Position numbers and translations under genes: made by a program
In this document: positions 12,030 to 63,900 of the stretch, one piece after another
Position numbering within the stretch: the stretch's first letter is position 1
How the letters are laid out: every line of letters begins with the position of its first letter
DNA from: Actinobacteria bacterium RBG_16_68_21
GTDB lineage: Bacteria > Actinomycetota > Acidimicrobiia > Spongiisociales > UBA11373
Assembly (NCBI GenBank): GCA_001767695.1
Contig: MELR01000011.1
Coordinates: 192 to 64,191, forward strand
Length of the DNA: 64,000 nucleotides
Reading direction: 5' to 3'
Notes under the pieces: generated by a model
What the model was told of the DNA's origin: nothing
Databases searched by the model: none
The model's input: the letters and a program-made list of their open reading frames with translations, nothing else

Positions 12030-12100
12030 CCGCAATTGGCAATTGGCAACCAGTAATTCGCGTCGAAGGGGTTGTCTAACTGGAAATCTGGAAACTGGAG
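12030..12100. repeat. Heptamer tandem-repeat spacer (locus A): (GCAATTG)2-3 then CTGGAAAT-CTGGAAA-CTGGAG
   Basis: gcaattggcaattggcaacc (12032-12050) and ctggaaatctggaaactggag (12079-12099), between ribH stop and rnhB start. Confidence 0.8.
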
Positions 12101-12105
12101 ACGAC

Positions 12106-12567
12106 TCAGAGTTGCCCCAATTGTCGCAACACCCACGCCGCCCGAACCGCCGCCTCAACGGCCTCGGTTCCCTTGTTCCCCGGCCCGGGACGGCTCCGTT
12201 CGATGGCGTGGCCCGGGTCGCGGGCGGTCAGCACCCCGAACCCCACGGGGACACCCGAGGACACCGCTACCTGACGCAGCCCGGCAGCGCACTGCGTGGC
12301 GATGTGTTCGTAGTGGTCGGTGTCTCCGGCGATCACCGCCCCCAGGGCGACCACGGCGTCGCATCCCACTGCCGCCAGCCGGGCCGCCACCACCGGCAAC
12401 TCGAACGCGCCGGGGACGTGGACGATGATCGGGTCTTTCGCCCCGGCCCCGGCGAGTGCCGCCAGGGCACCCTCCAGCAACCCCGACGTCACCGCGGCGT
12501 TGAAGTCGGCCACGACGACCCCGATCCTCATGCCGGTGGCGTCGAAGGGAGCTGCTATCTCAGGCAT
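12106..12567 (-). CDS. ribH: 6,7-dimethyl-8-ribityllumazine synthase
   Basis: 153 aa lumazine synthase fold ([10 protein letters not shown]..., GAFELPVVA..., HYEHIA). Confidence 0.9.
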
Positions 12568-29000: not shown

Positions 29001-29025
29001 GGCAATTGGCAATTGGCAATCGGCA
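29001..29025. repeat. Heptamer tandem repeat (locus B): (GGCAATT)2-GGCAATC-GGCA
   Basis: ggcaattggcaattggcaatcggca, between PilP-like gene stop (29090) and aroC start (28945). Confidence 0.8.
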
Positions 29026-29089: not shown

Positions 29090-29710
29090 CTATTTGAGGA
29101 TGCTCTGGCCGACCGCCAGGGTGAAGGCGCTCGAGCCGTAGGTGAACACGCCTCCGTTGTCGGTGAGGCTGACCACCTTGAAGTTGGTGGCGAAGGTGTC
29201 CCCTACCCCCACCGTGTAGGTCTGGCCATCGACCTCGACGACCGCCACCTTGCCACCGGCCTCGTCCCGCACCTCGAGCAACATCACCCTGATGCCGTCG
29301 GGGGTGTCGCCGCTCGTCGTCGTCGTGACACCCCCGGTCGTCGTGGTGGTGTCCCCACCCGTCGTCGTGGTGGTCTCCCCTCCGGCCGCGGTGGTCGTGG
29401 TCTCGCCACCGGCCACGGTGGTCGTCGTCTCCCCACCGGCCCCCGTCGTCGTCGTTTCCTCGGTGGGAGTGGTCACCAGGGGCTGGAAGGGATCGCGCGG
29501 CTGGGCGACCTGGTAGTCCCCGGTGAGCCCGATCGGGGCCCCCTGGGCTGCCGAGGTGTCCACCGCCCCGCTGTCCGGTGCGCCGGGGAGCGCGCTCTCG
29601 GCTCCCGTAAAGACCCCGGCCGACGCCATCAGCCATACCGACGCCACCGCGGTGCCCACGAGCAGCAGTGAAACGAATACCGACACCAGGGTTCGCTTGG
29701 CTCCGATCAT
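29090..29710 (-). CDS. type IV pilus assembly protein, PilP-like, with Thr-rich (GGETTTT)n linker
   Basis: From ATG at about 29710 (MIGAKRTLVSVFVSLLLVG, TM anchor); four-fold GGETTTTxA repeat; C-terminal beta-rich domain (GIRVMLLEVRDEAGGKVAVVEVDGQTYTVGVGDTF...); last gene of the pilM-pilN-pilO block. Confidence 0.55.
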   Translation of the reverse strand: MIGAKRTLVSVFVSLLLVGTAVASVWLMASAGVFTGAESALPGAPDSGAVDTSAAQGAPIGLTGDYQVAQPRDPFQPLVTTPTEETTTTGAGGETTTTVAGGETTTTAAGGETTTTTGGDTTTTTGGVTTTTSGDTPDGIRVMLLEVRDEAGGKVAVVEVDGQTYTVGVGDTFATNFKVVSLTDNGGVFTYGSSAFTLAVGQSILK

Positions 29711-29711
29711 C

Positions 29712-30350
29712 TCATGAGCCTCCCCGGTTCGCCTCGAACGACGAGTCCGTCGTCGGACCGGTCGTGGTCGTCGTGTCGCCTCCCAGCTCGCCGGCATCGA
29801 CGGTCGGCAGCAGGTCCGCCGTGGTGAAGAGCCGCATCTGGATGGTGGCCGCCAGAAGGGTGTTCCCCTCCTCGTCCTGGGTCGAGGACAACGACACTCC
29901 GTCGACCCGGACCAGGCGCTCCATGTCGTTCAGGCCGAAGAGGAACCCGAGCAGCTCGAAGAACTCCCCTTCCACCTGCGCACTGATGTCGATCCGGCGC
30001 AGCTCGGTGCCGTCCTCGGTAGGTGCGGGAACGGATGGCGACAGGGTCTGCAGGACCACTCCGGTCTCCTCGGCGAGGGAGTAGATCTGCTCGATGGCCT
30101 GATCGAGCAGCGGGCGGTCGGGGATGAGCGCGTTGAGCTTCCCCAGCGCCGCCTCGTACTCCACCCCGCGATCCCGGATCTCCTGGAGCTGTTGGATCTG
30201 CGCTCGCAGGCTGCCCTCGGTATCGACTGCGGCGCTCAACTCCCGGTGGGCGTCGTCGATCTTGGCGTTGCGCGGCGAGATCAACAAGAACCACCAGGCA
30301 GCCGTCACCGCCAGCGCGGCCAGCACGACGATCAGTCCCACGCGGCGCAT
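29712..30350 (-). CDS. pilO: type IV pilus assembly protein PilO
   Basis: 212 aa from ATG at 30350 (MRRVGLIVVLAALAVTAAWWFLLISPRNAKIDDAHRELSAAVDTEGSLRAQIQQLQ: TM plus coiled coil) then PilO-like periplasmic domain; TGATG junction with pilN. Confidence 0.7.
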   Translation of the reverse strand: MRRVGLIVVLAALAVTAAWWFLLISPRNAKIDDAHRELSAAVDTEGSLRAQIQQLQEIRDRGVEYEAALGKLNALIPDRPLLDQAIEQIYSLAEETGVVLQTLSPSVPAPTEDGTELRRIDISAQVEGEFFELLGFLFGLNDMERLVRVDGVSLSSTQDEEGNTLLAATIQMRLFTTADLLPTVDAGELGGDTTTTTGPTTDSSFEANRGGS

Positions 30351-30964
30351 CACGGCACCTCCGGAATGAGGGTGTCGGCGCGATTGGTGGTCGCCCCGCT
30401 GGTGAGCGCCGCCGTCGACGAGAAGGTCACCACATCCGTGTCGCCGATCGCCCCCTGGGACACCGTGCTCACCCAGGGGCCGGTCACGCCGCTGAATTGC
30501 CCGGAATCCAGCGCCCGCAGCCACTCCGAGACGTCGGGGTAGTCGAACCCGACGCCGCTGAAGGCCACCTGGCCCAGGACCCCGGGGATCGATGCGGAAG
30601 CGACGGTTCCCGAGAAGGTCTCCATCCAGACCCGTTGCGGCAGCAGCCTCGCCAGGTCGTTGAGGAAGATGCCCCAATCCACGTCTGAGGCGAGTGCCGC
30701 CCGAACCAGGTCCGCCTTTCCGTCGTACTCGATCTTCACCTCGTTGGCCGACGACAAGGTCGCCACGTCCCCTTCCAGCGACTGGTTGATGGCGGTCTGG
30801 GCATCCACGTCGGACTGTGCGGCCGCCACCTTGCCGTTCCAGTAGAAGACACCCACCACCAGCAGTGCCACATATACGCAGGCGGCGAACACACCAGCCC
30901 CGACGCGCCGTCGTCGGCTCCTCTCCTGGCCGACCTCCGGTGGCAGGAGATTGATTGGTCTCAT
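30350..30964 (-). CDS. pilN: type IV pilus assembly protein PilN
   Basis: MRPINLLPPEV (the INLLP signature of PilN), TM segment, periplasmic domain. Confidence 0.75.
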   Translation of the reverse strand: MRPINLLPPEVGQERSRRRRVGAGVFAACVYVALLVVGVFYWNGKVAAAQSDVDAQTAINQSLEGDVATLSSANEVKIEYDGKADLVRAALASDVDWGIFLNDLARLLPQRVWMETFSGTVASASIPGVLGQVAFSGVGFDYPDVSEWLRALDSGQFSGVTGPWVSTVSQGAIGDTDVVTFSSTAALTSGATTNRADTLIPEVP

Positions 30965-30973
30965 GACGGCGTC

Positions 30974-32077
30974 CTAGGCGACATGGGCGAATCGATTCGT
31001 CGGCGGAACGACGTACGAGCCCCACAGTCCCAGTCCGACCGCCGCCGGCAGGACCGGCTGGTACTCGAGCAACTGGCTTTCGGTCATCTGCACCCTGCCG
31101 ACGGTGACGTGGTCCAACACCCGGACCGGTTCGACCCGGGTGTTGAGCGAACGGCCAATGCGATTCGCCAGGTGCGGGAGGCGGGCGCCGTTTCCGGACA
31201 CGACGAGGCGGCCGAGAGCGTGCTCCCCGGCCTGGGTGAGGTAGTAGTTGACCGAGCCCCTGATCTCCTCGATCAAGGCGTCCCCGGTGCGGGTCAGGAT
31301 CCGGCGGGCGATCATCTCGGAGTCCTCGCCCTCGGGGAAACCCTGGGGAGCGACCCCCACCCGCCGTTTCAGCTCCTCGGCGTCTTCACGAGACAGCGAC
31401 ATCCCCGTCATCAGCGTCTCCGTGAAGTGCTCCCCGCCCGTGGGGATGATGCGCACGAATCGGGTGATCCCGCCGCGAACGATGGCGATCTGAGAGATGG
31501 ATGCCCCGATGTCGAGCAGCGCCTGGGGCCCGTCACCCCCGAGGAGGAGGTCCGCGCCAAAGGCGGCCCGTACCAATCCGAAGGCCTGCAGGTCGATGGA
31601 GAGGACGCTCAGGCCGGCACCGTCGGCGATCCTCACCAGACCGTCGACCATGTCACGCTGCGCCGCCACCACCAGGATCGAGAGCATCAGGTCCCCTTCC
31701 GGGGTGGTGAACTCCTCGAGAGGCACGAAGTCGAGCACGGCGTCGTCCACGGGAATGGGGATGGCGTCTTGGACCTGGAAGGGAAGCGCGTCGACGAGCT
31801 CGGATTCCTCCAGGTGGGGTACGTCCACCTGCCGGACGATCACCCGCTGGTTGGCCAGGCCGACCACGACCCGCTTCCGGGGCAGGTGGTGCCGCTTCCA
31901 CAGCGCAGCAACCGCCTCGGTGACCGCCCCCTCGTCGGCGACGTCGCCTGCCTCGACGACCCCGGGCGGAAGCGGCATCTCGGCGAACCGCCGCAGCACG
32001 GGCGCGCCCTTGCCGGCCTCGACGACGGCGGCGCGCACGGCATCAGAGCCAATGTCGAGACCTATCGCGACCGGCAT
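30974..32077 (-). CDS. pilM: type IV pilus assembly ATPase-fold protein PilM
   Basis: Actin-like fold: MPVAIGLDIGSDAVRAAVVE..., ...VVVGLANQRVIVRQVDVP..., LSVLSIDLQAFGLVRA; internal ATG at about 32077 has a better RBS (GCGAGG) than the GTG at 32131. Confidence 0.8.
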   Translation of the reverse strand: MPVAIGLDIGSDAVRAAVVEAGKGAPVLRRFAEMPLPPGVVEAGDVADEGAVTEAVAALWKRHHLPRKRVVVGLANQRVIVRQVDVPHLEESELVDALPFQVQDAIPIPVDDAVLDFVPLEEFTTPEGDLMLSILVVAAQRDMVDGLVRIADGAGLSVLSIDLQAFGLVRAAFGADLLLGGDGPQALLDIGASISQIAIVRGGITRFVRIIPTGGEHFTETLMTGMSLSREDAEELKRRVGVAPQGFPEGEDSEMIARRILTRTGDALIEEIRGSVNYYLTQAGEHALGRLVVSGNGARLPHLANRIGRSLNTRVEPVRVLDHVTVGRVQMTESQLLEYQPVLPAAVGLGLWGSYVVPPTNRFAHVA

Positions 32078-32244: not shown

Positions 32245-33024
32245 TCAGCCCAGATACCACGAGGCGATCGCCTCGCCGGCAGCGATCGCCACCCAGGCCC
32301 CCACCACCAGGGCCGGCCCGAAAGGGATCGTGTCACGGCGACCGGCGCGGCGAGTCGCCATCAGCACGATCGCCGACAGACCGCCGAGCACGAAGGCGGC
32401 GAACACCGCCACCGCCAGTGAGCCCCACGAGCGGTAGGCGGCGAAGACGCCGAGGAGGAAGGCCAGTTTCACGTCGCCCATCCCGAAGCCTCCGCGGGCG
32501 ACCAGGGCGATCACCAGGAGCCCTCCGAAGTAGGCGGCGCCGCCGGCGAGCGCCTGACCCAGTCGCCCGCTCGTTCCCTCGAGGAGCGCTCCTGTGGAGA
32601 GCAAGACCACCGCAACCGCGGTGCCCGGGTAGAGGATCAGATTGGGCAGCCGCTTTTCATCGAGGTCGACGACCGCGAGCACGAGCGTGACCGCGGCGAA
32701 CCAGAGGTAGGCGGGGAGCACCCAGGAGAGGCCGATGACGGCTGCCGTGATCCCGAAGAGCGCTCCCGAGGCCGCCTCCACCAGCGGGTACCTGACCGAG
32801 ATCGGTTGGCCACACGCCCGGCAGCGGCCCCGCAACAACACCCAGGAGAGCACCGGGATGTTGTCGACCGCACGGATCTCGGCGCGGCAGTTGGGGCAGG
32901 CGGATGGCGGCCTCACGATCGAGATGCCCGCCGGGACGCGGTAGGCCACCACGTTGAGGAAACTCCCGATCAACACCCCAGCGAAGGCGGCGACGGCGAC
33001 GGTCACCAATCCCTTCCCGTGCAC
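32245..33024 (-). CDS. pilD: prepilin peptidase (A24 family) PilD
   Basis: N-terminal Cys-x-x-Cys...Cys-x-x-Cys zinc motif (PSACPNCRAEI...RGRCRACGQPI) and polytopic membrane domain with peptidase A24 Asp motifs (GGFGMGDVKLAFL). Confidence 0.88.
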   Translation of the reverse strand: MHGKGLVTVAVAAFAGVLIGSFLNVVAYRVPAGISIVRPPSACPNCRAEIRAVDNIPVLSWVLLRGRCRACGQPISVRYPLVEAASGALFGITAAVIGLSWVLPAYLWFAAVTLVLAVVDLDEKRLPNLILYPGTAVAVVLLSTGALLEGTSGRLGQALAGGAAYFGGLLVIALVARGGFGMGDVKLAFLLGVFAAYRSWGSLAVAVFAAFVLGGLSAIVLMATRRAGRRDTIPFGPALVVGAWVAIAAGEAIASWYLG

Positions 33025-33446
33025 ACTGCGAGTGTCATCTCTGCCTCGGTCTCTTCCCTACAGGTGAAGTGGCCCCGAGCCCCTCCCGCCACGGCGAGGC
33101 GGGCGCCGAACCAGGTTCCGCTGCGGGAGCGAGCGTACAGCAGCACCTGAGCGGAGTCTCCCGGCTTGACGTCGGCGACGACCACCCGCACCGAGGTATC
33201 CGCAGATCCGAGGTCGATGCCGGGGGCGATTTCGGTCAGCCGGCCGGCGTCGGTGCTGAACGCACCATCGGCGACCATGAGGCCCATCTCGGCGGTGGCG
33301 GCGTGGCTGAGACTCGACGTGGCCCGGGCGTCGTTGGCCCGCGACCGGAAGCCCTCGAGGATCGCCACGAGGATCGCAACGATGGCGAGGACGACCGCCA
33401 GCTCCACCAGCGTGTAACCGCCGTCGTGATTCCGGGGCATGGTCAC
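33003..33446 (-). CDS. type IV pilin (second pilin gene)
   Basis: Class III signal: MTMPRNHDGG|YTLVELAVVLAIVAIL (G-1, E+5); 147 aa; RBS GAGGAG just after the upstream hairpin. Confidence 0.8.
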   Translation of the reverse strand: MTMPRNHDGGYTLVELAVVLAIVAILVAILEGFRSRANDARATSSLSHAATAEMGLMVADGAFSTDAGRLTEIAPGIDLGSADTSVRVVVADVKPGDSAQVLLYARSRSGTWFGARLAVAGGARGHFTCREETEAEMTLAVCTGRDW

Positions 33447-33457
33447 TCCTCATGTGA

Positions 33458-33489
33458 GAAGGGGGCGGGTCTTACGATCCGCCCCCTTC
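33458..33489 (-). terminator. GC-rich stem-loop between pilA and the second pilin gene (partial terminator/attenuator)
   Basis: GAAGGGGGCGG-(10 nt loop)-CCGCCCCCUUC, 11-bp perfect stem, 24 nt after pilA stop and followed at once by the RBS/ATG of the next pilin gene. Confidence 0.55.
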
Positions 33490-33512
33490 CCGATTGGTGA
33501 TCGACCGTGGAC

Positions 33513-33974
33513 TTACCAGCCGCCCTGGGCGTAGGCCCCAGGAGCAGCGTCGGGACAGGTGACGCTGAGGTCAGTGGCTCCGTACCACGTTCCAAGTGTC
33601 GAGCTCTCCCAGATGGCGAACGTGTTGCCGGAAGCGGCGGTCCGGGTCAGGCACACGGTGTCCGAGGTGGTGGCGTTCAACTGCAGCGCCACACCGCTCG
33701 CCGGGTTGGCGTTGATCACCGCGTTCGGTTCGAATGCCGTGATGTCCGCGGCGGTCTCGGTGTAGTCGCCGTTGTCCAGCCAGTACGCCTTCTCGGAGAG
33801 AAGGACGTTGCGGATATCGCTCTGGGCAGAACGATCCTGCGCCGACTTGCGGAACCCGAGGAACGAGGGGATGGCAATGGCGATGAGAACTGCAATGATC
33901 ATCACCACGACCATCAGCTCGATGAGCGTGAACCCTTCGTCGCCCTTAAGGCCACGTCGGATGGTCTTCATCAT
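33513..33974 (-). CDS. pilA: type IVa major pilin PilA
   Basis: 153 aa from ATG ATG at 33974 with GGAGG RBS: MMKTIRRGLKGDEG|FTLIELMVVVMIIAVLIAIAIPSF, canonical prepilin leader/N-methyl-Phe/E5 N-terminus; C-terminal Cys pair (C..C). Confidence 0.88.
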   Translation of the reverse strand: MMKTIRRGLKGDEGFTLIELMVVVMIIAVLIAIAIPSFLGFRKSAQDRSAQSDIRNVLLSEKAYWLDNGDYTETAADITAFEPNAVINANPASGVALQLNATTSDTVCLTRTAASGNTFAIWESSTLGTWYGATDLSVTCPDAAPGAYAQGGW

Positions 33975-34104
33975 TGTTCGAGAACCTCCTAGTGGTTTCT
34001 CTCGCGTGGGACGCAAAGTGCGACCCGTCGTGGTTATCGGCTTGAAGCCGCAGGGGCCTTGAGGGCTATTTCGCGATCTGGTCCGCGGCCGAAAGCTGAA
34101 CACT

Positions 34105-34153
34105 GACCTTCGACCTTGGACCTTGGACCTTGGACCTTGGACCTTGGACCTTG
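34105..34153. repeat. Heptamer tandem repeat (locus C, part 1): ACCTTCG + (ACCTTGG)6; on the pilA-coding strand (CCAAGGT)6
   Basis: accttcgaccttggaccttggaccttggaccttggaccttggaccttgg, perfect 7-nt period, about 130-180 nt upstream of the pilA start. Confidence 0.9.
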
Positions 34154-34200
34154 GAGAGACGTTCGCGAACGGTCCGGAGTCCCGAGGCGCATCGCCCGAC

Positions 34201-34248
34201 AGCGGGAGAGCGGCCAGCGGAAAGCGGGCAGCCGGCAGCGGGCAGCGA
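34201..34248. repeat. Heptamer-periodic array (locus C, part 2): AGCGGGA GAGCGGC CAGCGGA AAGCGGG CAGCCGG CAGCGGG CAGCGAC
   Basis: Seven in-register degenerate heptamers (consensus cAGCGGG) abutting the pilC stop codon (34249). Confidence 0.75.
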
Positions 34249-35475
34249 CTAGTTGTTGATCAGGTTGGCGATGTTGAACATCGGCAGGTAGAGGGAGATG
34301 AGGATCCCGCCGACGGCGACGCCCATCACGATGATCAAGATCGGTTCGATCAACGAGGTGAGCGCGTTCACGGTGTCATCGACCTCGTTGTCGTAGAAGT
34401 CGGCCACCTTGGCCAGCATGGCATCGAGGGCGCCGGTCTCCTCCCCGACGGCCATCATGTGGGTGACCATGGGCGGGAAGACCTCGTGCCGCCCGAGTGG
34501 TCCGGCGAGTGACTCGCCCCGGCGGACTGACGCCTGGACGTCGGTCACCGCCCGGCTGACCAGGGCATTGCCCGAGGTCTGCGCCACGATGTCCAGCGCC
34601 TGCAGCACCGGTACGCCGGTCCGGCTCAGCACCGAGAAGGTCCTGGCGAACCGGCTGATCGCCACCTTCTGCACCAGAGAGCCGAAGACGGGGGCCCTCA
34701 ACTTGAGGGTGTCCCATCGCAGCTTCCCGGTGTCGGTTCGCTTCCAGCGCCGGAAGACGATCACTCCCCCGAGCAGTGACCCGAGCACGACCCACCAGAA
34801 CTTGGTGATGGCGCCCGAGATGTTGATCAGTGCCTGGGTGGGGAGAGGCAGGGTCCCCCCGAGGTCCTCGTACATCTTCTGGAAGATGGGGACGACGAAC
34901 AGCAACATCCCGGAGACGATGCACACGATCAGCACCAGCACCACCACCGGGTAGGCCATCGCCGACTTCACCTTCGACCGTAGCCGAACACCGGCTTCGA
35001 GCGTGTCGGCCAGCCGCACCAGAGTCTCGTCGAGCGCCCCGCCCACCTCCCCGGCGCGCACCATCGACACGTACAGATGGTTGAACACGTCGGGATGCTG
35101 CTCGAGGGCCGCGGAAAGGCTGTTCCCCTGCTCGACGTTGGTGCGAACCTCGCCGATGATGCCCGCCAACGCCGGGTTCTCGTTCTGTTCCTCGAGGATG
35201 GCCAGCGCCCGGATCAGGGTGAGGCCGGAGTTGACCATCGTTGCCAGCTGCCGGCTGAAGATGGCGACTTCCTTGAGCTTCACCTTCTTCTTGAATCCTG
35301 GGATCGTGATCTCTCTGTCGAGACCGGACACCCGCTTGGCGTCGACGCGCAGAGCCGTATAGCCCTTCTCGCGCAATGCTCCGGCGACCGATGCCGGCGA
35401 GGAGCCCTCCATCGACCCGCTGTGGACGTTGCCGGATCGATCGCGCGCCTTGTACTCGTAGATTGCGGTGCTCAT
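34249..35475 (-). CDS. pilC: type IV pilus inner-membrane platform protein PilC
   Basis: 408 aa; MSTAIYEYKARDRSGNVHSGSMEG..., two GspF/PilC repeats with three TM segments. Confidence 0.88.
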   Translation of the reverse strand: MSTAIYEYKARDRSGNVHSGSMEGSSPASVAGALREKGYTALRVDAKRVSGLDREITIPGFKKKVKLKEVAIFSRQLATMVNSGLTLIRALAILEEQNENPALAGIIGEVRTNVEQGNSLSAALEQHPDVFNHLYVSMVRAGEVGGALDETLVRLADTLEAGVRLRSKVKSAMAYPVVVLVLIVCIVSGMLLFVVPIFQKMYEDLGGTLPLPTQALINISGAITKFWWVVLGSLLGGVIVFRRWKRTDTGKLRWDTLKLRAPVFGSLVQKVAISRFARTFSVLSRTGVPVLQALDIVAQTSGNALVSRAVTDVQASVRRGESLAGPLGRHEVFPPMVTHMMAVGEETGALDAMLAKVADFYDNEVDDTVNALTSLIEPILIIVMGVAVGGILISLYLPMFNIANLINN

Positions 35476-37091
35476 CGCCCCTGACCTCCCAGAAGGTTCG
35501 TCAGCTCTTCGACGTTCTGCGCCCGTTCCATGGCGAGGCGAACATCGATCCTGCCGGAGCGCACGAGTCCTGCCAGGGACTTGTCCATCGTCTGCATGCC
35601 GTGGCGTCCCCCCGACTGGATCGTGCTGCGGATCTGGTGGACCTTGCCTTCGCGGATCAGGTTGCGAACGGCAGGGATCGCCACCATCACCTCGACGGCG
35701 GCCGCCCGCCCCTGGCCGTCGACGGTGGGCAGCAACTGCTGAGTCAGCACACCCTGGAGGGACTCGGCCAGTTGGACCCGCACCTGCTGCTGCTGGTGGG
35801 GAGGAAAGACGTCGATGATCCGCTCAATGGCCCCGGGGGCATCCTGGGTGTGCAGAGTGGCGAAGACCAGGTGTCCCGTCTCTGCGGCAGTCAGGGTGGT
35901 CGCCATCGTCTCCAGGTCCCGCATCTCGCCGACCAGAATCACATCGGGATCCTGGCGGAGGGCATGCCGCAACGCCGTGGAGAACGCGCTCGTGTCGGCA
36001 CCCACCTCGCGTTGGTTGACGATCGAGCTCTTGTGTCTGTGCATGAATTCGATCGGGTCTTCGATCGTCATGACGTGGACCGCCCGGTGAGTGTTGATCT
36101 CGTCCACCAACGAGGCCAGGGTCGTCGACTTGCCGGTACCGGTGGCTCCGGTGACGAGCACGAGACCTCGCGGCAGGTAGGCGAAATCGCGAACCACCGC
36201 CGGCATTCCGAGTTCGGCGAGCGACTGGACTTCATTGGGGATGGCTCGCATCACCGCGCCGACTGCTCCCCTCTGAAAGAACACATTGACACGGAACCTT
36301 CCCGCGCCGGGAAGAGGATGTGAACAATCCAGTTCGAGGTTGTTCTCGAGCTCCTCGCGTTGACGCGCCGAGAGGATCGCGTAGACGAGACCTCGCAGCG
36401 GCCCCGGCATCAGCGTGTCGTAGCCCTCGATGGGGAGCAGGGCCCCGTGCACCCGCATCAGCGGCGGCAAGCCGGCGCTCAGATGGAGATCGGAGCCGTG
36501 GGCTTCGAGCAGGATCTTCAGCAGCTCGTTGATGTGATACCCCGATTCGCCGACGGCCTCCGCAGGGCGGGAAGACGGCACAGGGGGTCCGTCGAGAACC
36601 GCGTGGAGCTGCTTGGTCCCCGGGGTGGGCACCGCAGTCCCCCGAGCGCTCGAGTAGGTGCGGCGCACGACGTCGTCGAGTGAGTCACGCGGAGCGAGGG
36701 CCACCGAGATCTCCCCACCTGCCGCCGCGGCGACGCGACGGCGCCGTTCGACGTCCAGGGGGTCGGCCATCGCCACGACCAGGTTCCTCGACTCCATGCG
36801 CAGTGGAAGGACGACCTCGGCGACGGCCACCGCCGGATCCAATCGGGAGAGCACGCCGGGATCGGGAGCGGCGCCCAGAACGGGATCGTAGAACTCGACG
36901 CCGATCCCTTCGGCGATCACACGGAGGACATCGGCGCGATGCATCGCCCCGGTCTGCAGCAGCTCTGTGATGGGATCGGTACCTCGGCTGCCGGCGAGTT
37001 GCTCGGCTTCGGCAAGGGCGTCGGTGGGCAGCAGGTGCCCATCGACGAGGCGTTGACCGATCTGGCGGATCAGCTGATCGATGGGCATCAG
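35472..37091 (-). CDS. PilT-like retraction-type ATPase with N-terminal GspE_N/MshEN-like extension
   Basis: C-terminal about 350 aa is PilT-type (Walker A GATGTGKST, Asp box, Walker B DVILVGEMRD, His box ATLHT); N-terminal about 190 aa (MPIDQLIRQIGQRLVDGHLLPTDALAEAEQ...LRMESRNLVVAMADPLD) looks like the T2SS-E N-terminal domain; ATG at about 37088 overlaps pilB stop. Confidence 0.75.
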   Translation of the reverse strand: MMPIDQLIRQIGQRLVDGHLLPTDALAEAEQLAGSRGTDPITELLQTGAMHRADVLRVIAEGIGVEFYDPVLGAAPDPGVLSRLDPAVAVAEVVLPLRMESRNLVVAMADPLDVERRRRVAAAAGGEISVALAPRDSLDDVVRRTYSSARGTAVPTPGTKQLHAVLDGPPVPSSRPAEAVGESGYHINELLKILLEAHGSDLHLSAGLPPLMRVHGALLPIEGYDTLMPGPLRGLVYAILSARQREELENNLELDCSHPLPGAGRFRVNVFFQRGAVGAVMRAIPNEVQSLAELGMPAVVRDFAYLPRGLVLVTGATGTGKSTTLASLVDEINTHRAVHVMTIEDPIEFMHRHKSSIVNQREVGADTSAFSTALRHALRQDPDVILVGEMRDLETMATTLTAAETGHLVFATLHTQDAPGAIERIIDVFPPHQQQQVRVQLAESLQGVLTQQLLPTVDGQGRAAAVEVMVAIPAVRNLIREGKVHQIRSTIQSGGRHGMQTMDKSLAGLVRSGRIDVRLAMERAQNVEELTNLLGGQGR

Positions 37092-38776
37092 ACCACCACC
37101 CTGAGAATCTCCTCGAGCGTCGTGAGCCCCAGCCTGACCTTCTCCATGCCGTCCTGGCGAAGGGTCTTCATGCCTTGGCTCACCGCAACCCGCTTGATCT
37201 CGTCTGAGGGTCGGTGCTCGACGATCATCCGCTGCATCTCCTCGCTTACCAGCAGGGTCTCGTTCACCGCGAGCCGTCCCCGGTAGCCGGTGCTCGTGCA
37301 CGCCTTGCATCCGACCGCCCGGTAGATCGTCATCGGGCCATCATCGGGATCGAAACCCATTTGCTGGACGATCTCGGGGGACGCGATCCGGGCCTCCCTG
37401 CAGCGATCGCAGATCTTGCGCGCCAGACGCTGGGCGAGGACGGAGTCGAGGGCCGACGACACCAGGTAGGGCTCTACGCCCATGTCGATCAGTCGCCCGA
37501 ATGCGGAGGACGAGTCGTTGGTGTGCAGCGTGCTCAGCACCAGGTGCCCGGTCAGTGCAGCCTCGACGGCGATCTTGGCCGTCTCGGTGTCACGCACCTC
37601 GCCGATGAGCACGATGTCGGGGTCCGAGCGGAGAATCGCCTTGAGGACCGTTGCGAACTGGAGTCCCGCCTTGCGGTTCACCTGCACCTGGGTGACACCC
37701 TTGAGGCGATACTCGACCGGATCCTCGACGGTGATGATGTTCTTGTCGGGTGAATTGAGGATGTTGAGTGCCGAGTACAGCGTGGTCGTCTTGCCGGATC
37801 CGGTCGGGCCGGTGACCAGGATCGCCCCGTACGGCTTGCTGTACGACTGCTCGAATCGGGCAAGGGCGGAGGGGAGGAATCCGAGCTGAGCGAGGTCGAG
37901 GACCGCGTCCTCCTTGTCGAGGATCCGCAGCACGACCTTCTCACCGTAGATGTTGGGGAGGGTGGCCACCCGAAGGTCGATCTGCCGGCCCGACACCCGC
38001 AGGCTCACGCGCCCATCCTGTGGCACCCGGCGCTCGGCGATGTCGAGATCCGCCATGATCTTGAGCCTGCTGACGACCGCTCCGGACACCGATCGCGGTG
38101 TACTCATGATCTCGTGGAGCACGCCGTCGATCCGGAACCGCACCCGCAGGTCGCGTTCGCCGGGTTCGACGTGAAGGTCGGAGGCCCGCTCGTTGACGGC
38201 GCGGCTGATCAGCGTGTTCACCAGCTTGACGATTGGGGCCTCCTCGACCGCCAACTCGATGTTGCTCAGATCCTCCTGGGCAATGTCCCCGCCCACGAGG
38301 TCCGCCAGGTCGGCCACCGAGTCGTCGTAACGGCCCTGGCGACGGATGGCATCATCGATGTCCCCCCGGGTGGCGATCTTGGGGATGATGCGCAGTCCGG
38401 TGATGGCCCGGATGTCGTCGATGACGAGCACGTTGGCCGGATCCGCCATCGCCACCACGAGCGCGTCATCATCGAACTTGACTGGAATGACGCCGTAGCG
38501 CCGCGCCAGCGACTCGGGAATCAGAGCGGCCGCGCCGGGGTCGATCGTGGTCTCATTGAGGTTGATGAACTCGACCCCGCTGTGCGTGGCGATCGCCTGG
38601 ACCAGGTCGAGTTCCTTGACCATGCCTTCCGCGACGAGGATGCGAGTCAGCGTCTCCCCGGTCTCTGCCTGGCGGGCGCGAGCGCGCGCCATATCTCCCG
38701 TCGACACCAGACCGGAATCTTCGAGGACCGTGCCGATGTGATCGCGCTCTGACACCCGAACTCCCGTGCGGAACAC
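37088..38776 (-). CDS. pilB: type IV pilus assembly (extension) ATPase PilB
   Basis: 562 aa; GspE_N-type N-domain (VVAMADPANVLVIDDI), Walker A GPTGSGKTTTLYS, Asp/His boxes, tetracysteine motif (CDRC...CKAC). Confidence 0.88.
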   Translation of the reverse strand: MFRTGVRVSERDHIGTVLEDSGLVSTGDMARARARQAETGETLTRILVAEGMVKELDLVQAIATHSGVEFINLNETTIDPGAAALIPESLARRYGVIPVKFDDDALVVAMADPANVLVIDDIRAITGLRIIPKIATRGDIDDAIRRQGRYDDSVADLADLVGGDIAQEDLSNIELAVEEAPIVKLVNTLISRAVNERASDLHVEPGERDLRVRFRIDGVLHEIMSTPRSVSGAVVSRLKIMADLDIAERRVPQDGRVSLRVSGRQIDLRVATLPNIYGEKVVLRILDKEDAVLDLAQLGFLPSALARFEQSYSKPYGAILVTGPTGSGKTTTLYSALNILNSPDKNIITVEDPVEYRLKGVTQVQVNRKAGLQFATVLKAILRSDPDIVLIGEVRDTETAKIAVEAALTGHLVLSTLHTNDSSSAFGRLIDMGVEPYLVSSALDSVLAQRLARKICDRCREARIASPEIVQQMGFDPDDGPMTIYRAVGCKACTSTGYRGRLAVNETLLVSEEMQRMIVEHRPSDEIKRVAVSQGMKTLRQDGMEKVRLGLTTLEEILRVVV

Positions 38777-38910
38777 CGCACCTCGGAACCGTGCTTATCA
38801 CGGGGTTTGTCGGCATGACGGAGGCTGCTCTTGAGTGGTGTCCCCGGCCAGGTTCCGCCGAGGTGCCCGGAAGGAACCGCAGCACCGCCTCGGGAAAGGA
38901 CCGGTCGCGC

Positions 38911-53837: not shown

Positions 53838-55489
53838 GGGCACCACCCGGAGATGCTGGTGGACAGGTCTTTCTTCTTCGAGATCGACACCGTCTTCTCG
53901 CCGAGGACGTTGCCGTCGGCCAGGCACCGCTTGGCGACGTCGAATGCGCCGGCGTAGTCGACGAAGCTCGCCTCGCCCTGGTAGTTGGGCGGTAGCACGG
54001 TCCACGGTCCGGAGCCGTGAGGACGGTAGAGGAACTCCGCCCGGTCTCCGGCACGCAGGATCATGGTTCCCATGTTCCTCGGTCGCTCCAGACGGAGATC
54101 GATCGTGTTGTCGTCGTCGGGATCGAAGGTCATGTCGTCGGGACCGTGGCCCCAGATCGTCGAGGCAACCACCGTGTAGTCGACATTCCGGATGAGGCTG
54201 TATGTGCTCTGCCCGTGATCGTCCGTGGTGAGCACGATGGTCGGCTTCCCCGGTGCGGTGATAGTGAGGGTCGCGCCGTGGACCACCCGATTGGTGCTGT
54301 CCTTCACCGTGAACGTGACCAGGTTGGTGTTGGCGGGGACCGTGGTCGTGGTGGTGGTCGCGGCCACGGTGGTCGTCGTCGCCCCCGGCTGCGTGGTCGT
54401 GGTCGTTGCTCCCGGCTGCGTGGTCGAGGTGGTGGAGGTCGTCGTGGTCGTCGAGGGTCCGATCGGCTGCATGTGCACCGTGAGGTCGTGCACCGAATCC
54501 GGGTAGCCGCCGGGGATGTTGACCGAGGACAGCGTCCAGGTCTGATAGCCGGAGGCGGTCACGGTCAGGTCGTAGGCGTCGGGGATCAGCCCTGTGGCGG
54601 TGAGCACTCCCGGCGCCAGCGTCACGGTCTGATTAATCACCAGATTGTTGAAGGCGAGCTGCGGCGACGCCACAACCTGGCCGGTGTAGAAGTCGACCAC
54701 CGTGACCCGGAGCGTGGCGGGGCGATACACCCGCAACGTGGTCTCGGTCAAGGTGCCCGCGGTCACGTGCAGGCGGTCGTTGCCCGCCAGGACGTCGTCG
54801 GGGTGGATGATCCACCCGTCAGCGTCCTCGAGGGTGACCGTGTAATCGGCCGGCGGGATCGCCGGGAATACCTGCTCGTCGGCGTAGAGGGCCGAGGAGA
54901 TCGGAGCCGCCGGGGACGCCTGGATCTTGAGCGAGGGGAGGTCGTGGCTGCTGGGGGCGAACGGCTCGTAGGCGGCGAGGTACACCCGGGCGTTGGCGAT
55001 CCCCTCGTGGGCGCCGACGCTGCGCGGCGAGACGATGGTCTCCATGACCACCGGGTCGGCCTCCCGCCCCGCCGCGGTGACCGTGACCGTGACCACCTTG
55101 TAGTCCACTCCCGGGTCCCAGGAGCCCTGGACCCCGTCACCCCCCTGGGGGATGACATCGAGTCCGGTCACCGACCCGGCGTATCTGACGTCGAGGGCGA
55201 CGTCGTAGGACCGGCCTTCGACGGTCACCACGTGATGAGCGGTGAGGACGCCACCGGGGGTCCGCCCCGGCAGTCCGATTTCCTCGTACGGGAGGGCGCG
55301 CAGCGACTCGATCTCCGCCTGAGCGAGGTTCTCGGCCACCGAGATCACCCGGGCGTCGCCGATGCGCTGCAGGGATGCCACCACCGGTTGAATGGTGAGC
55401 GCGATGGCGACGGCGAGGATGGTCACCGCCACCATGGCCTCGACGATCGTGAATCCTTCCTCCTCGCGGAGGCGGCGCAGCGTGGTCAT
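53834..55489 (-). CDS. large minor pilin / pilus-associated adhesin-like protein with Thr-rich linker, 551 aa
   Basis: MTTLRRLREEEG|FTIVEAMVAVTILAVAIAL (prepilin signature), beta-rich domains, Thr/Pro linker TTTTTSTTSTTQPGATTTTTQPGATTTTVAATTTTTTVP, C-terminal domain ending in Cys. Confidence 0.65.
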   Translation of the reverse strand: MTTLRRLREEEGFTIVEAMVAVTILAVAIALTIQPVVASLQRIGDARVISVAENLAQAEIESLRALPYEEIGLPGRTPGGVLTAHHVVTVEGRSYDVALDVRYAGSVTGLDVIPQGGDGVQGSWDPGVDYKVVTVTVTAAGREADPVVMETIVSPRSVGAHEGIANARVYLAAYEPFAPSSHDLPSLKIQASPAAPISSALYADEQVFPAIPPADYTVTLEDADGWIIHPDDVLAGNDRLHVTAGTLTETTLRVYRPATLRVTVVDFYTGQVVASPQLAFNNLVINQTVTLAPGVLTATGLIPDAYDLTVTASGYQTWTLSSVNIPGGYPDSVHDLTVHMQPIGPSTTTTTSTTSTTQPGATTTTTQPGATTTTVAATTTTTTVPANTNLVTFTVKDSTNRVVHGATLTITAPGKPTIVLTTDDHGQSTYSLIRNVDYTVVASTIWGHGPDDMTFDPDDDNTIDLRLERPRNMGTMILRAGDRAEFLYRPHGSGPWTVLPPNYQGEASFVDYAGAFDVAKRCLADGNVLGEKTVSISKKKDLSTSISGWCP

Positions 55490-58333: not shown

Positions 58334-58422
58334 AGCATTTAGCAATTGGCGATTGGCGATTGGCGATCAGCGATTAGCGGCCAGCACGACTGTGCCTTGC
58401 CGGTGACGGGCGACGGGTGACG
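58334..58422. repeat. Heptamer-periodic array (locus E): AGCATTT AGCAATT (GGCGATT)2 GGCGATC AGCGATT AGCGGCC ... CGGTGAC GGGCGAC GGGTGAC GG
   Basis: In-register 7-nt periodicity across the secF-apt spacer; ends 6 nt before the secF stop codon. Confidence 0.8.
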
Positions 58423-58428
58423 GAGCGG

Positions 58429-59499: not shown

Positions 59500-61250
59500 T
59501 TCGCCACCTCCCCCGGCGCGCCGGTGGCTCCCCTGATGCTGAACGCGCCACCCTCACCGAACCTGGTCTGGGCGACGAGGGCGACCGCGGGACGGGTGTA
59601 GAAGACAGCCACCAGGACGTCGGTGACCGTGGCGACGCCGAGGGCCAGGGCGAATCCCTTCACCGATCCGGCGGCGAGGAAGAACAACAGCACCGCGGCG
59701 GTGAAAGAGACCGTATCGGCGGTGATGAGGGTGTGGAACGCCCGCGTGAAGCCCTGGTCGATGGCGGCGCGCAGCGACCGGCCCTTGTGGACCTCTTCCT
59801 TGATCCGCTCGAAATACACGATGTAGGAGTCGGCGGTGATGCCCACCGAGACGATCACGCCGGCGACCCCGGCCAGCGTCAACGTCACCCCCGACCAGGC
59901 ACCGAGCAGCGAGAAGATCACCAGCACCGTGCTGCCGAACACGAAGAGGCCGATGACGTTGATCAGCCCGAGCGCCCGGTAGTAGAGGATCATCGCCAGG
60001 GCCACCAGGATCAGTCCGGCTACTCCGGCGACGAGGCCGGCCTTCAGCGAGTCGGAGCCGAGCGTCGCCGACACCGACTGCACGCTCGACTGGGTGAAGG
60101 CAACCGGCAAAGCGCCGTACTTGAGCACGACTGCCAGGTCGTTGGCTTCCTTCTCCTGATTGTCGGAGTTGCCCAGGGTGATCACTGCCGAGTCGCCCAC
60201 GATCCCGGTGGCCGGATCGACGTCCGAGGCGATCTGGGGAGCGGACTGGATCACCTCGTCGAGGACGATGGCAAACTGCCGCTGCGGATCACCGGTGGGG
60301 AACTGCGCCAGTTCCTTGGTGGTCTGGGTGAACTTGGCCGCTCCCTCCGCGTTGAAGTTCAACTGGACGATCCAGCTGCCCGCACCGCCCCCACCCCCGA
60401 GCGGGGAACCGCCGCCGCTCGCCGAATACTGAGCCTGCGCGCTCTCGAGGTCGGAGCCGAGCACCCGCGCCACCGACAGGTGGTAGATCGTGCCGCCCTG
60501 GTCGGCCAGGTAGGCGTCGAGGTCGGGAGAGGGATCGGAGGTGACCCCGGTGGTCACGTCGACACAACCCGGTTGGTCCACCTCGTCGCACCAGGTGATC
60601 CCCTCGGGGAGCACGACCCCGGCCTTGGGGTCGAGCGTCGTGGTGGTGGTGTCCCCGGCCACGGTCGTCGTGGTGGTGTCCCCGGCGACGGTCGTCGTGG
60701 TCGTCTCGGCTGCCGCGGTTGTCGTCGTCGCCGCGGTCGTGGTCGTGGTGTCGCCGGCGCTCGTGGTGGTCGTCTCCCCGACACCGGTGGTCGTGGTCTC
60801 CCCGGGCACCGTCGTGGTCGAGGCGTCGGGAAGGGTGGTCGTGGTGGTGGTCGTCTCCGCGACGTTGAGGAACACCGGGCTCAGCCCGGGGATGGGGCCG
60901 ATCTCGAGCACCGGTCGGAACTCGAGAAGACCGGTGGTGCCGACCGCGGCGAGTGCCCGATCGCGGTCGGTGACGCCGGGAAGCTGCACCTCCACCGCCC
61001 GATCGCCGACGATGGTGATCTCGGGTTCCTGGACGTTGCCGAGTGCCTCGATGCGACGCCGCATGATCGCCACCGCCTGCTCCAGCACGTCGGGGGGAGT
61101 CCCCTCCGGGGCATCGAGAACGACGGAGAAGCCTCCCTGCAGGTCGAGGCCCAGCTTGGGTGTGGTGTGCGTGCTCTGGGTGAGGAACAGAAGGCCGAAC
61201 ACGATCACCAGTGTGAGCGTAAGGGTCACCGAGGCGGTGCGGCGTGACAC
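59496..61250 (-). CDS. secD: protein translocase subunit SecD with Thr-rich tandem-repeat insertion in the periplasmic P1 domain
   Basis: 584 aa; SecD N-terminal TM, P1 domain, C-terminal six-TM block (LGLINVIGLFVF...); residues about 125-196 are (G/A)(D/E)TTTTT(V/A)A repeats (coding 60660-60890). Confidence 0.88.
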   Translation of the reverse strand: MSRRTASVTLTLTLVIVFGLLFLTQSTHTTPKLGLDLQGGFSVVLDAPEGTPPDVLEQAVAIMRRRIEALGNVQEPEITIVGDRAVEVQLPGVTDRDRALAAVGTTGLLEFRPVLEIGPIPGLSPVFLNVAETTTTTTTLPDASTTTVPGETTTTGVGETTTTSAGDTTTTTAATTTTAAAETTTTTVAGDTTTTTVAGDTTTTTLDPKAGVVLPEGITWCDEVDQPGCVDVTTGVTSDPSPDLDAYLADQGGTIYHLSVARVLGSDLESAQAQYSASGGGSPLGGGGGAGSWIVQLNFNAEGAAKFTQTTKELAQFPTGDPQRQFAIVLDEVIQSAPQIASDVDPATGIVGDSAVITLGNSDNQEKEANDLAVVLKYGALPVAFTQSSVQSVSATLGSDSLKAGLVAGVAGLILVALAMILYYRALGLINVIGLFVFGSTVLVIFSLLGAWSGVTLTLAGVAGVIVSVGITADSYIVYFERIKEEVHKGRSLRAAIDQGFTRAFHTLITADTVSFTAAVLLFFLAAGSVKGFALALGVATVTDVLVAVFYTRPAVALVAQTRFGEGGAFSIRGATGAPGEVAK

Positions 61251-61604: not shown

Positions 61605-63900
<2,296 letters not shown>

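Follow-up and report, generated by a model that had tools for sequence, protein, structure and literature searches.

The DNA analysed in this work is a window of 64,000 nucleotides (nt) from the metagenome-assembled genome of Actinobacteria bacterium RBG_16_68_21, a member of the Acidimicrobiia (contig MELR01000011.1), which contains on its minus strand a type IV pilus cluster. In this cluster, the pilC gene of the platform protein and the pilA gene of the major pilin are separated by a spacer of 274 nt (33975-34248), and this spacer holds a tract of tandem heptamers, (CCAAGGT)6 followed by CGAAGGT, situated 131-181 nt upstream of the pilA ATG (33974). A reading of the DNA made from its letters alone, hereafter called the sequence-only reading, had singled out the tract as a candidate slipped-strand switch of pilin expression. 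The gene context on which this proposal was built, with pilC and pilA on either side of the spacer, is as claimed, T2SSF domains being found in PilC and an N_methyl motif in PilA; downstream of pilA come a second pilin gene, a prepilin peptidase gene and pilM/N. The genes and repeats concerned are the following:

33513..33974, minus strand: pilA, major pilin of 153 amino acids, with the N_methyl (N-terminal methylation) motif and MMKTIRRGLKGDEGFTLIELM
34105..34155, minus (coding) strand: heptamer tract (CCAAGGT)6 + CGAAGGT, length-polymorphic between near-identical strains
34156..34199, minus strand: unique inter-array segment with the 12-nt palindrome CGTTCGCGAACG (34160-34171)
34200..34247, minus strand: degenerate heptamer array, CTGCCCG-like on the minus strand, about 6.7 units with 75% matches according to Tandem Repeats Finder (TRF)
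34249..35475, minus strand: pilC, platform protein with T2SSF domains, the same in sequence as the PilC recorded at NCBI for RBG_16_68_21

The tract is reported by TRF at 34105-34155 with a period of 7, 7.3 copies, 97% matches and a score of 95, and the 44 nt from 34112 to 34155 form a strictly perfect period-7 run. The sequence-only reading had described a perfect array of 6.9 copies; the array is real, but the word perfect is slightly generous for six perfect units and one unit with a single mismatch. A second array of 7-nt units had also been announced in the spacer and does exist at 34200-34247, in a degenerate form, beginning 1 nt past the pilC stop codon (3 nt in the CTGCCCG phase of the minus strand). 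When the window is scanned at a threshold of 28/35, three lag-7 regions are found and lags 4-6, 8-13 and 15 give none. As 20 shuffles of the window contain no lag-7 region at this threshold, the tract is far beyond what chance produces.

Length alleles of the tract in natural populations

Contigs of the same population from other samples were recovered by exact-protein look-ups. They are 99.2-100% identical to the window and all of them are short-read metagenome assemblies (ENA and relative contig names with a k141 prefix). Around the tract, the identity per contig is 99.75-99.97% over 2.6-7.2 kb and the tract-adjacent flanks are identical; the contigs that are cut at the tract show 1-3 mismatches with the window over 2.6-4.3 kb.

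Within these near-identical flanks, the tract differs from strain to strain. The window and contig L081 share the allele of six units followed by CGAAGGT, and L084 matches it in length but carries a C>T change in unit 1. The allele of L082 consists of three units, a 5-nt partial unit CCGGT, eight further units and CGAAGGT. In sample ERZ27256988, in which the tract is not spanned, at least 12 units precede the end of L085, the contig on the pilC side, and L089, the contig on the pilA side, opens with about 13 units and is devoid of the CGAAGGT variant. The break of contig L083 also falls within the tract. As far as these assemblies allow, the tract is hypervariable, and the slipped-strand hypermutability put forward in the sequence-only reading is borne out by a copy number that is anything but invariant: 6 units, 3 units plus a partial unit plus 8 units, and at least 12-13 units were seen. 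The degenerate array at 34200-34247 shows no difference in five of five population contigs. A scan of metagenomes with the flank anchor CGGACCGTTCGCGAACGTCTCT returned as its sole match an unrelated coding-region sequence (L086).

A predicted WhiG-type promoter between the tract and pilA

The sigma-28/WhiG consensus consists of a -35 element T(A/C)AA, a spacing of N16 and the -10 element GCCGATAA (PMC12871210, PMC8325347). Matches to this consensus lead to the following predictions for pilA and pilB:

33975..34033, minus strand: -10-to-ATG stretch of pilA, 59 nt, with the predicted transcription start site (TSS), a leader of about 50 nt and an AGGAGG ribosome-binding site
34034..34041, minus strand: predicted pilA -10 element, an exact match to the consensus (GCCGATAA), separated by 17 nt from the -35 element
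34059..34062, minus strand: predicted pilA -35 element, TCAA within CTCAAG (consensus from PMC12871210, PMC8325347)
38807..38814 (whole site 38807-38845), minus strand: -10 element GCCGACAA of the second WhiG-type site, with CTCAAG-N15 in front of it, immediately before pilB

The GCCGATAA at 34034-34041 is the only exact copy in the 64 kb, and a search of both strands returned two WhiG-type matches, one before pilA and one before pilB, for 0.16 expected. The alignment of eleven species shows that about 110 nt adjoining pilA are conserved and that nothing further upstream is. This pilA-proximal block is composed of GAAA...CTCAAG-N16-GCCGATAA, then of 51-59 nt with a stem-like element and an invariant AGGAGG. 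The combination of TCAA-N16/17-GCCGATAA, leader and AGGAGG is kept in the 11 species, and the promoter motif is present before pilA in the species referred to as P0025 and P0114 too, while the distance from the pilC stop codon to the -10 element ranges from 85 to 229 nt across species. The site upstream of pilB is kept in all ten of the ten relatives examined.

On the basis of these motifs, the pilA TSS would be located near 34027, the tract would extend roughly from -78 to -128 relative to this start site, and WhiG would be the sigma factor that directs pilA transcription. The pilus cluster appears to be organised in two WhiG-type transcription units, an arrangement that is not described for Acidimicrobiia in PMC8325347 or PMC12871210. 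In Rubrobacter, the control of pilus genes by WhiG has been established by TSS mapping, with multiple WhiG promoters within the pilus cluster (PMC8325347, PMC12871210), and RsiG, the WhiG anti-sigma factor, is reported in three of four Acidimicrobiales (PMC8325347). The promoters predicted here resemble the WhiG pilus promoters of Rubrobacter and Actinoplanes by their matching motif, by the presence of more than one promoter in the cluster and by their unicellular actinobacterial host (PMC8325347, PMC12871210); they differ by the 17-nt spacer at pilA and by the extended -35 CTCAAG. The two conserved sites would extend to the Acidimicrobiia the link between cyclic di-GMP (c-di-GMP)/WhiG and the pilus that has been proposed for Rubrobacter, and the location of the pilA promoter is useful for the design of reporters.

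No promoter was found in the pilC-pilA spacer by a sigma-70 consensus scan. Between the pilC stop codon and the tract, the only TA dinucleotide is that of the stop codon itself, so that no TANNNT -10 element exists upstream of the tract.

The stem-like element of the conserved block, GGGTCGC...GCG.CCC, opens the predicted pilA leader (33995-34027, minus strand) and is conserved in most relatives. It may act as a 5'-terminal stabilising hairpin for the pilin mRNA.

Possible modes of action of the tract on pilA

The sequence-only reading held that changes in unit number would alter the spacing between promoter elements or the phasing of the promoter with a regulator site. The first of these effects finds no support in the position of the conserved predicted promoter: because this sole promoter-like element of the spacer sits between the tract and pilA, and the tract starts (34105) 42 nt upstream of its -35 element, the number of units cannot change the -35/-10 spacing. 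As for the second, the unique segment distal to the tract displays no conservation in any relative, and there is consequently no evidence for a phased regulator site. The palindrome CGTTCGCGAACG was considered as a distal operator and set aside, since 42 such 12-nt palindromes occur in the window and the segment that bears it has no counterpart in the spacers of the relatives.

A role of the arrays as terminators, cruciforms or hairpins was discarded as well, their folding being no better than that of shuffles (z from -0.3 to +1.8). For the RNA of the pilC-pilA spacer, z amounts to -0.31, and an RNA hairpin of the kind known for the hmw adhesin genes of Haemophilus influenzae was rejected on the ground that the spacer RNA has no arm complementary to the repeat. 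In the region 33400-34800, no riboswitch or leader worth crediting came out of an Rfam search with a permissive E-value; none of the hits reached the gathering score, the best one having 18.5 bits for a threshold of 45 bits. Expression of pilA would probably be unaffected by the tract; a modulation of its level by way of pilC read-through or of the geometry of the upstream DNA is conceivable.

Period-7 arrays in the window and in the Acidimicrobiia

The pilC-pilA spacer is one of at least six array-bearing spacers of the window, and the five others identified flank housekeeping genes (aroC, ribH/rnhB, mgsA/alaS, secF/apt and queA):

12032..12099, minus strand: two short heptamer arrays in the ribH-rnhB spacer, of constant length in four contigs
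29001..29025, minus strand: short GCCAATT-type heptamer array upstream of aroC, unchanged in the one other contig found
43906..44053, minus strand: heptamer arrays in the mgsA-alaS spacer, of the same class as the pilA tract
58345..58423, minus strand: heptamer arrays in the secF-apt spacer, of the same class as the pilA tract
63779..63899, minus strand: group of five short heptamer arrays before queA, built from four different units

Every lag-7 region of the window is intergenic. Sliding-window tests bring out several arrays (5-7 regions) at no other lag than 7 and its multiple 14; nothing is found at lags 8, 10, 11 and 13, and 0-2 regions at the other lags that are not multiples of 7. For exact period-7 runs of 2.5 units or more, the rate per 10 kb is 1.25 in the window and 0.82 in twelve loci of related Acidimicrobiia, for 0.05-0.06 both in other Actinomycetota and in a set of Nitrospirota and others, and exact runs of periods 8-12 are absent from all these sets. 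Since the rates are high in the window and in its Acidimicrobiia relatives and drop to 0.05-0.06 in the other sets, the over-representation of period 7 is a property of the clade.

Some of the arrays of the housekeeping spacers vary too. In the mgsA-alaS spacer, two strains are shorter by exactly 14 nt, that is by two units (CAACCCG CAACCCG), and in the secF-apt spacer the strains differ by exchanges of whole units that leave the length unchanged. The idea that the repeat is specific to the location of pilA was abandoned: arrays of the same class are found at aroC, rnhB, alaS, apt and queA, and those at alaS and apt vary in their turn.

The units found in the window include GCAATTG/GCCAATT, GGAAACT, GGCGACT, CAGCGGG/CAACCCG, GCGATTA, TCCGCTA and GACGGGY. 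CCAAGGT arrays were found neither elsewhere in the window nor in the genome-scan loci L001-L080. The AT-rich family GCCAATT/GCAATTG, which includes the palindrome CAATTG, recurs in at least five window spacers and in one orientation, in a genome of 68% G+C (window positions 12032, 29001, 43960, 58345, 63779 and 63824); it is also present in the sister species L001 (7300-7320). Each genome seems to have its favoured units.

The pilC-pilA spacer in related species

In related Acidimicrobiia, the same promoter is preceded in the pilC-pilA spacer by heptamer arrays unrelated to CCAAGGT or by no array at all. A sister species (PilC P0025) carries (GCCCGTC)n just after the pilC stop codon, with n equal to 4, 6 or 7 across ten contigs, eight of which have six units. 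Arrays are absent from this spacer in L007, L010 and the P0114 species, where the spacer of the latter is only 110 nt long and invariant in length; the relatives without arrays have a GC-rich hairpin in that place.

In ten relatives, period-7 arrays make up 19.7% of the bases of the pilC-pilA spacer, 1.4% of the other non-coding bases (a difference of about 14-fold) and 0.1% of the coding bases, the spacer and other non-coding counts being approximate since some genes, pilA and the second ATPase gene among them, are overlooked by the gene maps, which are based on G+C at third codon positions (GC3). This enrichment does not make the pilA spacer a unique hot spot, because the spacer upstream of aroC shows an equal persistence across species: heptamer arrays of unrelated units are found there in the window, L003, L005 and L009. 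The persistence of arrays in a given spacer, with turnover of their units, looks general.

Three further observations were made in these spacers. Among strains of the P0039 species (= L003), an identical PilC and the same promoter go together with completely different array segments between the stop codon and the promoter (L116 versus L117-L125, positions ~2128-2290), a pattern which looks like wholesale cassette replacement and not like stepwise slippage. In addition, inverted pairs of heptamer arrays occur in relatives at L117 2125-2272, L002 1330-1452, L003 12104-12228 and L004 2501-2611, with arms of 22-31 nt that are 73-91% complementary and 60-100 nt apart. Their units are related (GGYAYCA-type) across species and across spacers (pilC-pilA, upstream of aroC, upstream of pilB), which suggests a discrete element or a long-stem structure. 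Finally, the aroC-upstream spacer of L007 (~12100-12330) has no heptamer arrays and contains a direct repeat of about 100 nt, CATGCGGAGGCG(T/C)TTCGGGGCCGAG(C/T)AGGACCCGAACGCCG...

Proposed origin of the tract and alternative explanations

Starting from what is directly observed, namely the repeat, its length polymorphism, the genome- and clade-wide class to which it belongs, the position of the promoter motif and the existence of array-free relatives, we propose as the likely explanation that the tract is a slippage-driven heptanucleotide long simple sequence repeat (SSR), and that the spacer DNA in which it lies, upstream of the WhiG-type promoter of pilA, is expendable. The tract would occupy an expendable portion of the pilC-pilA spacer, where units of 7 nt would be gained and lost through replication slippage. 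It would be one of the lineage-wide period-7 arrays that occupy intergenic spacers in this clade of Acidimicrobiia regardless of the function of the flanking genes. The pilA gene would be transcribed from its own sigma-28/WhiG-type promoter, TCAA-N17-GCCGATAA, situated between the tract and the gene, and the length of the tract would leave the geometry of the core promoter unchanged.

Slippage as the mechanism of unit change fits the distribution of the alleles, because, as expected of slippage, arrays with more perfect units vary more: within the population, three or more length alleles exist for the pilA tract with its six perfect units, and the arrays of 2.5-3 units (aroC, ribH-rnhB) are length-invariant. 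The tract is probably slippage-prone filler DNA and not an on/off switch of the pilin. Of the slipped-strand switch suggested by the sequence-only reading, the hypermutable repeat is retained; the part that made it a promoter-spacing switch is not, in view of the promoter position, of the housekeeping arrays and of the relatives.

Several points weigh against the interpretation of the tract as filler DNA. The copy-number evidence derives from short-read assemblies. The enrichment of period-7 arrays in the pilC-pilA spacer is strong, and the longest perfect arrays (at least six units) adjoin the pilA promoter both in the window (CCAAGGT) and in L001 (GCGAATT), the closest species representative among the genome-scan recoveries; selection for a contingency locus could also yield recurrent repeats at one surface-structure gene. 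Moreover, a scan for intrinsic terminators detected no minus-strand terminator between pilC and pilA, so that read-through from pilC is conceivable and the tract may be transcribed in this way and act at the RNA level.

In a first alternative, unlikely in our opinion, the tract is a contingency locus or rheostat whose length modulates pilA from upstream and not through the -35/-10 spacing. The modulation could possibly pass through a distal site, so far unrecognised, whose distance or helical phase would change, through the geometry of the upstream DNA or through the fate of a repeat-bearing pilC read-through RNA, as with hmw of Haemophilus. The true hypervariability of the tract, from 6 to at least 13 units between flanks that are 99.75-99.97% identical, the recurrence of arrays in the same spacer across species, the location of the longest perfect arrays beside the pilA promoter in the window and L001 and the lack of a predicted terminator all agree with this alternative, and heptamers that set expression are known upstream of adhesin and toxin genes (hmw, PMC12721329; ctxAB, bioRxiv 10.1101/2021.05.14.444153). 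However, the 42 nt between the tract and the -35 element, the unconserved distal segment, the ordinary folding of the spacer RNA and its lack of an arm complementary to the repeat argue against it. The gap between array and pilA -35 element is itself variable (42 nt in the window, but about 20 nt in L001 and about 130 nt in P0025), some relatives are array-free, the aroC spacer is as persistent, and housekeeping arrays vary as well. Beyond the enrichment in the pilC-pilA spacer, there is no positive evidence for a modulatory role. In its stronger form, the pilA-proximal tract of this free-living, uncultivated actinobacterium would be a selected contingency element whose rapid changes in length (6 to more than 13 units) tune or switch the output of the type IV pilin, for example by way of pilC read-through RNA or of the promoter's upstream geometry, and the recurrence across the clade of unrelated arrays in this one spacer would reflect repeated selection for variability at a phage-receptor/adhesion gene; we regard this form as quite unlikely. 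Were the tract to control pilA, no earlier case of SSR-based phase variation of a type IV pilus would be known from a monoderm, and the host would moreover be an environmental non-pathogen.

A generic, sequence-independent role of the arrays at operon boundaries, for example as unstructured C-rich RNA for Rho loading or as an insulating spacer, is in our view distinctly unlikely. The arrays do start only a few nt past the stop codon of the preceding gene and are not more structured than shuffles, and tend to be less so. C exceeds G on the sense strand in 12 of the 14 window arrays (skew +0.2 to +0.47), on a strand which has overall more G than C (-0.03), and a GC-rich hairpin takes the place of the arrays in the array-free relatives. 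However, many of the window arrays belong to shared unit families and are hence not independent observations. The pilA tract has no C excess (skew -0.03), and the relatives are divided into five arrays of positive and five of negative skew; Rho loading was rejected on this account. Furthermore, some spacers contain both a hairpin and arrays, and several true spacers, such as that upstream of pilB, are array-free.

The delivery or exchange of arrays as cassettes by a mobile or recombining element, of which the pilA tract would be a remnant, is very improbable for this tract. It would account for the segments exchanged in the P0039 species behind an identical PilC and before the same promoter, for the inverted pairs with related GGYAYCA-type units in different spacers and species, and for favoured units such as GCCAATT in at least five window spacers. 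The tract of the window is nevertheless a simple direct array devoid of an inverted partner, its unit forms no other array in the window or in the genome-scan loci, and its alleles differ by whole units in otherwise identical DNA, which is the signature of slippage in situ.

That the copy-number differences are mere artefacts of short-read tandem-repeat assembly is extremely unlikely: although the pilC-pilA spacer is where three of the five PilC-bearing contigs stop, L083 and L085 within the tract itself, and all the contigs are short-read and metagenomic (k141), a tract of 49-89 nt is shorter than a k-mer of 141 nt and can be spanned, the internal markers of the alleles (the CCGGT partial unit, the C>T change in unit 1 and the loss of CGAAGGT) would not be invented by an assembler, and exact steps of 7 and 14 nt occur independently at other arrays and in another species (six units in 8/10 contigs).

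Comparison with known repeat systems

Intergenic heptanucleotide repeats include the short tandemly repeated repetitive (STRR) heptamers of cyanobacteria. As reported by Mrazek et al. (2007, cited in PMC4692102 and PMC4679880), no class of long SSRs is more abundant than the heptamers, polymerase slippage has been proposed for them, and three Actinobacteria are among the repeat-rich genomes. The intergenic GGGAATC arrays of Xanthomonas and GGGGA(T/C)T arrays of Nostoc vary between close relatives and are sometimes paired in inverted orientation, and no function is known for them (Rehm et al. 2015, PMC4692102); heptanucleotides of Calothrix are mentioned in the same paper. The arrays described here have in common with those of Xanthomonas and Nostoc the over-representation of period 7, the exclusively intergenic location, the occurrence at many loci irrespective of gene function, the favoured unit families, the variation of length and sequence at the same spacer between close relatives and the presence of some inverted pairs. 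They differ by their host, an acidimicrobial genome of 68% G+C, by the multiplicity of units of which none is dominant, and by units which do not form G-quadruplexes. A literature search gave no report of a class of intergenic heptamer arrays in Acidimicrobiia.

The evidence favours this broader account, in which a clade of Acidimicrobiia shares the unexplained intergenic heptamers long known from Nostoc and Xanthomonas. The turnover of the arrays is visible within one natural population, in the form of gain and loss of whole units, unit swaps and replacement of array segments, and these genomes offer a usable natural system to address why repeats of 7 nt accumulate in bacterial spacers.

In Neisseria meningitidis, a TAAA tract lies upstream of the -35 element of nadA. 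The promoter of ctxAB in Vibrio cholerae contains TTTTGAT heptad repeats (bioRxiv 10.1101/2021.05.14.444153). As in these two systems, the repeat of the pilA spacer is upstream of the core promoter and its copy number depends on the strain; unlike them, where the repeats are regulator sites or separate operators from the promoter, the pilA spacer revealed neither a regulator site nor a conserved element distal to the tract. In the case of hmw1A/hmw2A of H. influenzae, the (ATCTTTC)n repeat is transcribed as part of the 5' untranslated region and acts with a G-rich partner arm, a long hairpin and RNase III (PMC12721329). The two systems share a 7-nt unit upstream of a gene for a surface adhesin or filament and a copy number that is hypervariable in natural populations. 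The hmw repeat, however, is downstream of its promoter, whereas the pilA tract is upstream of the predicted one and has neither a complementary arm nor an excess of structure; and the hmw repeat is locus-specific and conserved in sequence, whereas each related species has a unit other than the one found here, and arrays of this kind also adjoin housekeeping genes.

Other observations in the pilus cluster and the window

The second pilin gene (33003-33446, minus strand) exhibits a 12-nt in-frame indel polymorphism at a period-12 repeat (window 33356-33382). The encoded sequence is ...VAILEGF... in the window, L087 and L089, and ...VAIMVPSLEGF... in L081/L088; four residues of the N-terminal pilin helix, a proline included, are present or absent depending on the strain.

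Upstream of pilC, the two ATPase genes 35472-37090 and 37088-38776, both on the minus strand, each encode an MshEN domain and a T2SSE domain. From its domain composition, the would-be pilT gene looks like a second PilB/MshE-like ATPase gene whose product has an N-terminus with the potential to bind c-di-GMP, a feature of interest given the link between WhiG and c-di-GMP.

Coding tandem repeats of 24-27 nt with a similar consensus (GTCGTCGTGGTGGTGTCCCC...) are found in three minus-strand genes, at 29314-29459, 54325-54456 and 60636-60820. The repeat region in the one translation inspected, that of 29712-31025, reads GGDTTTTTGPTTD, and these repeats probably encode linker segments rich in Thr, Gly and Pro.

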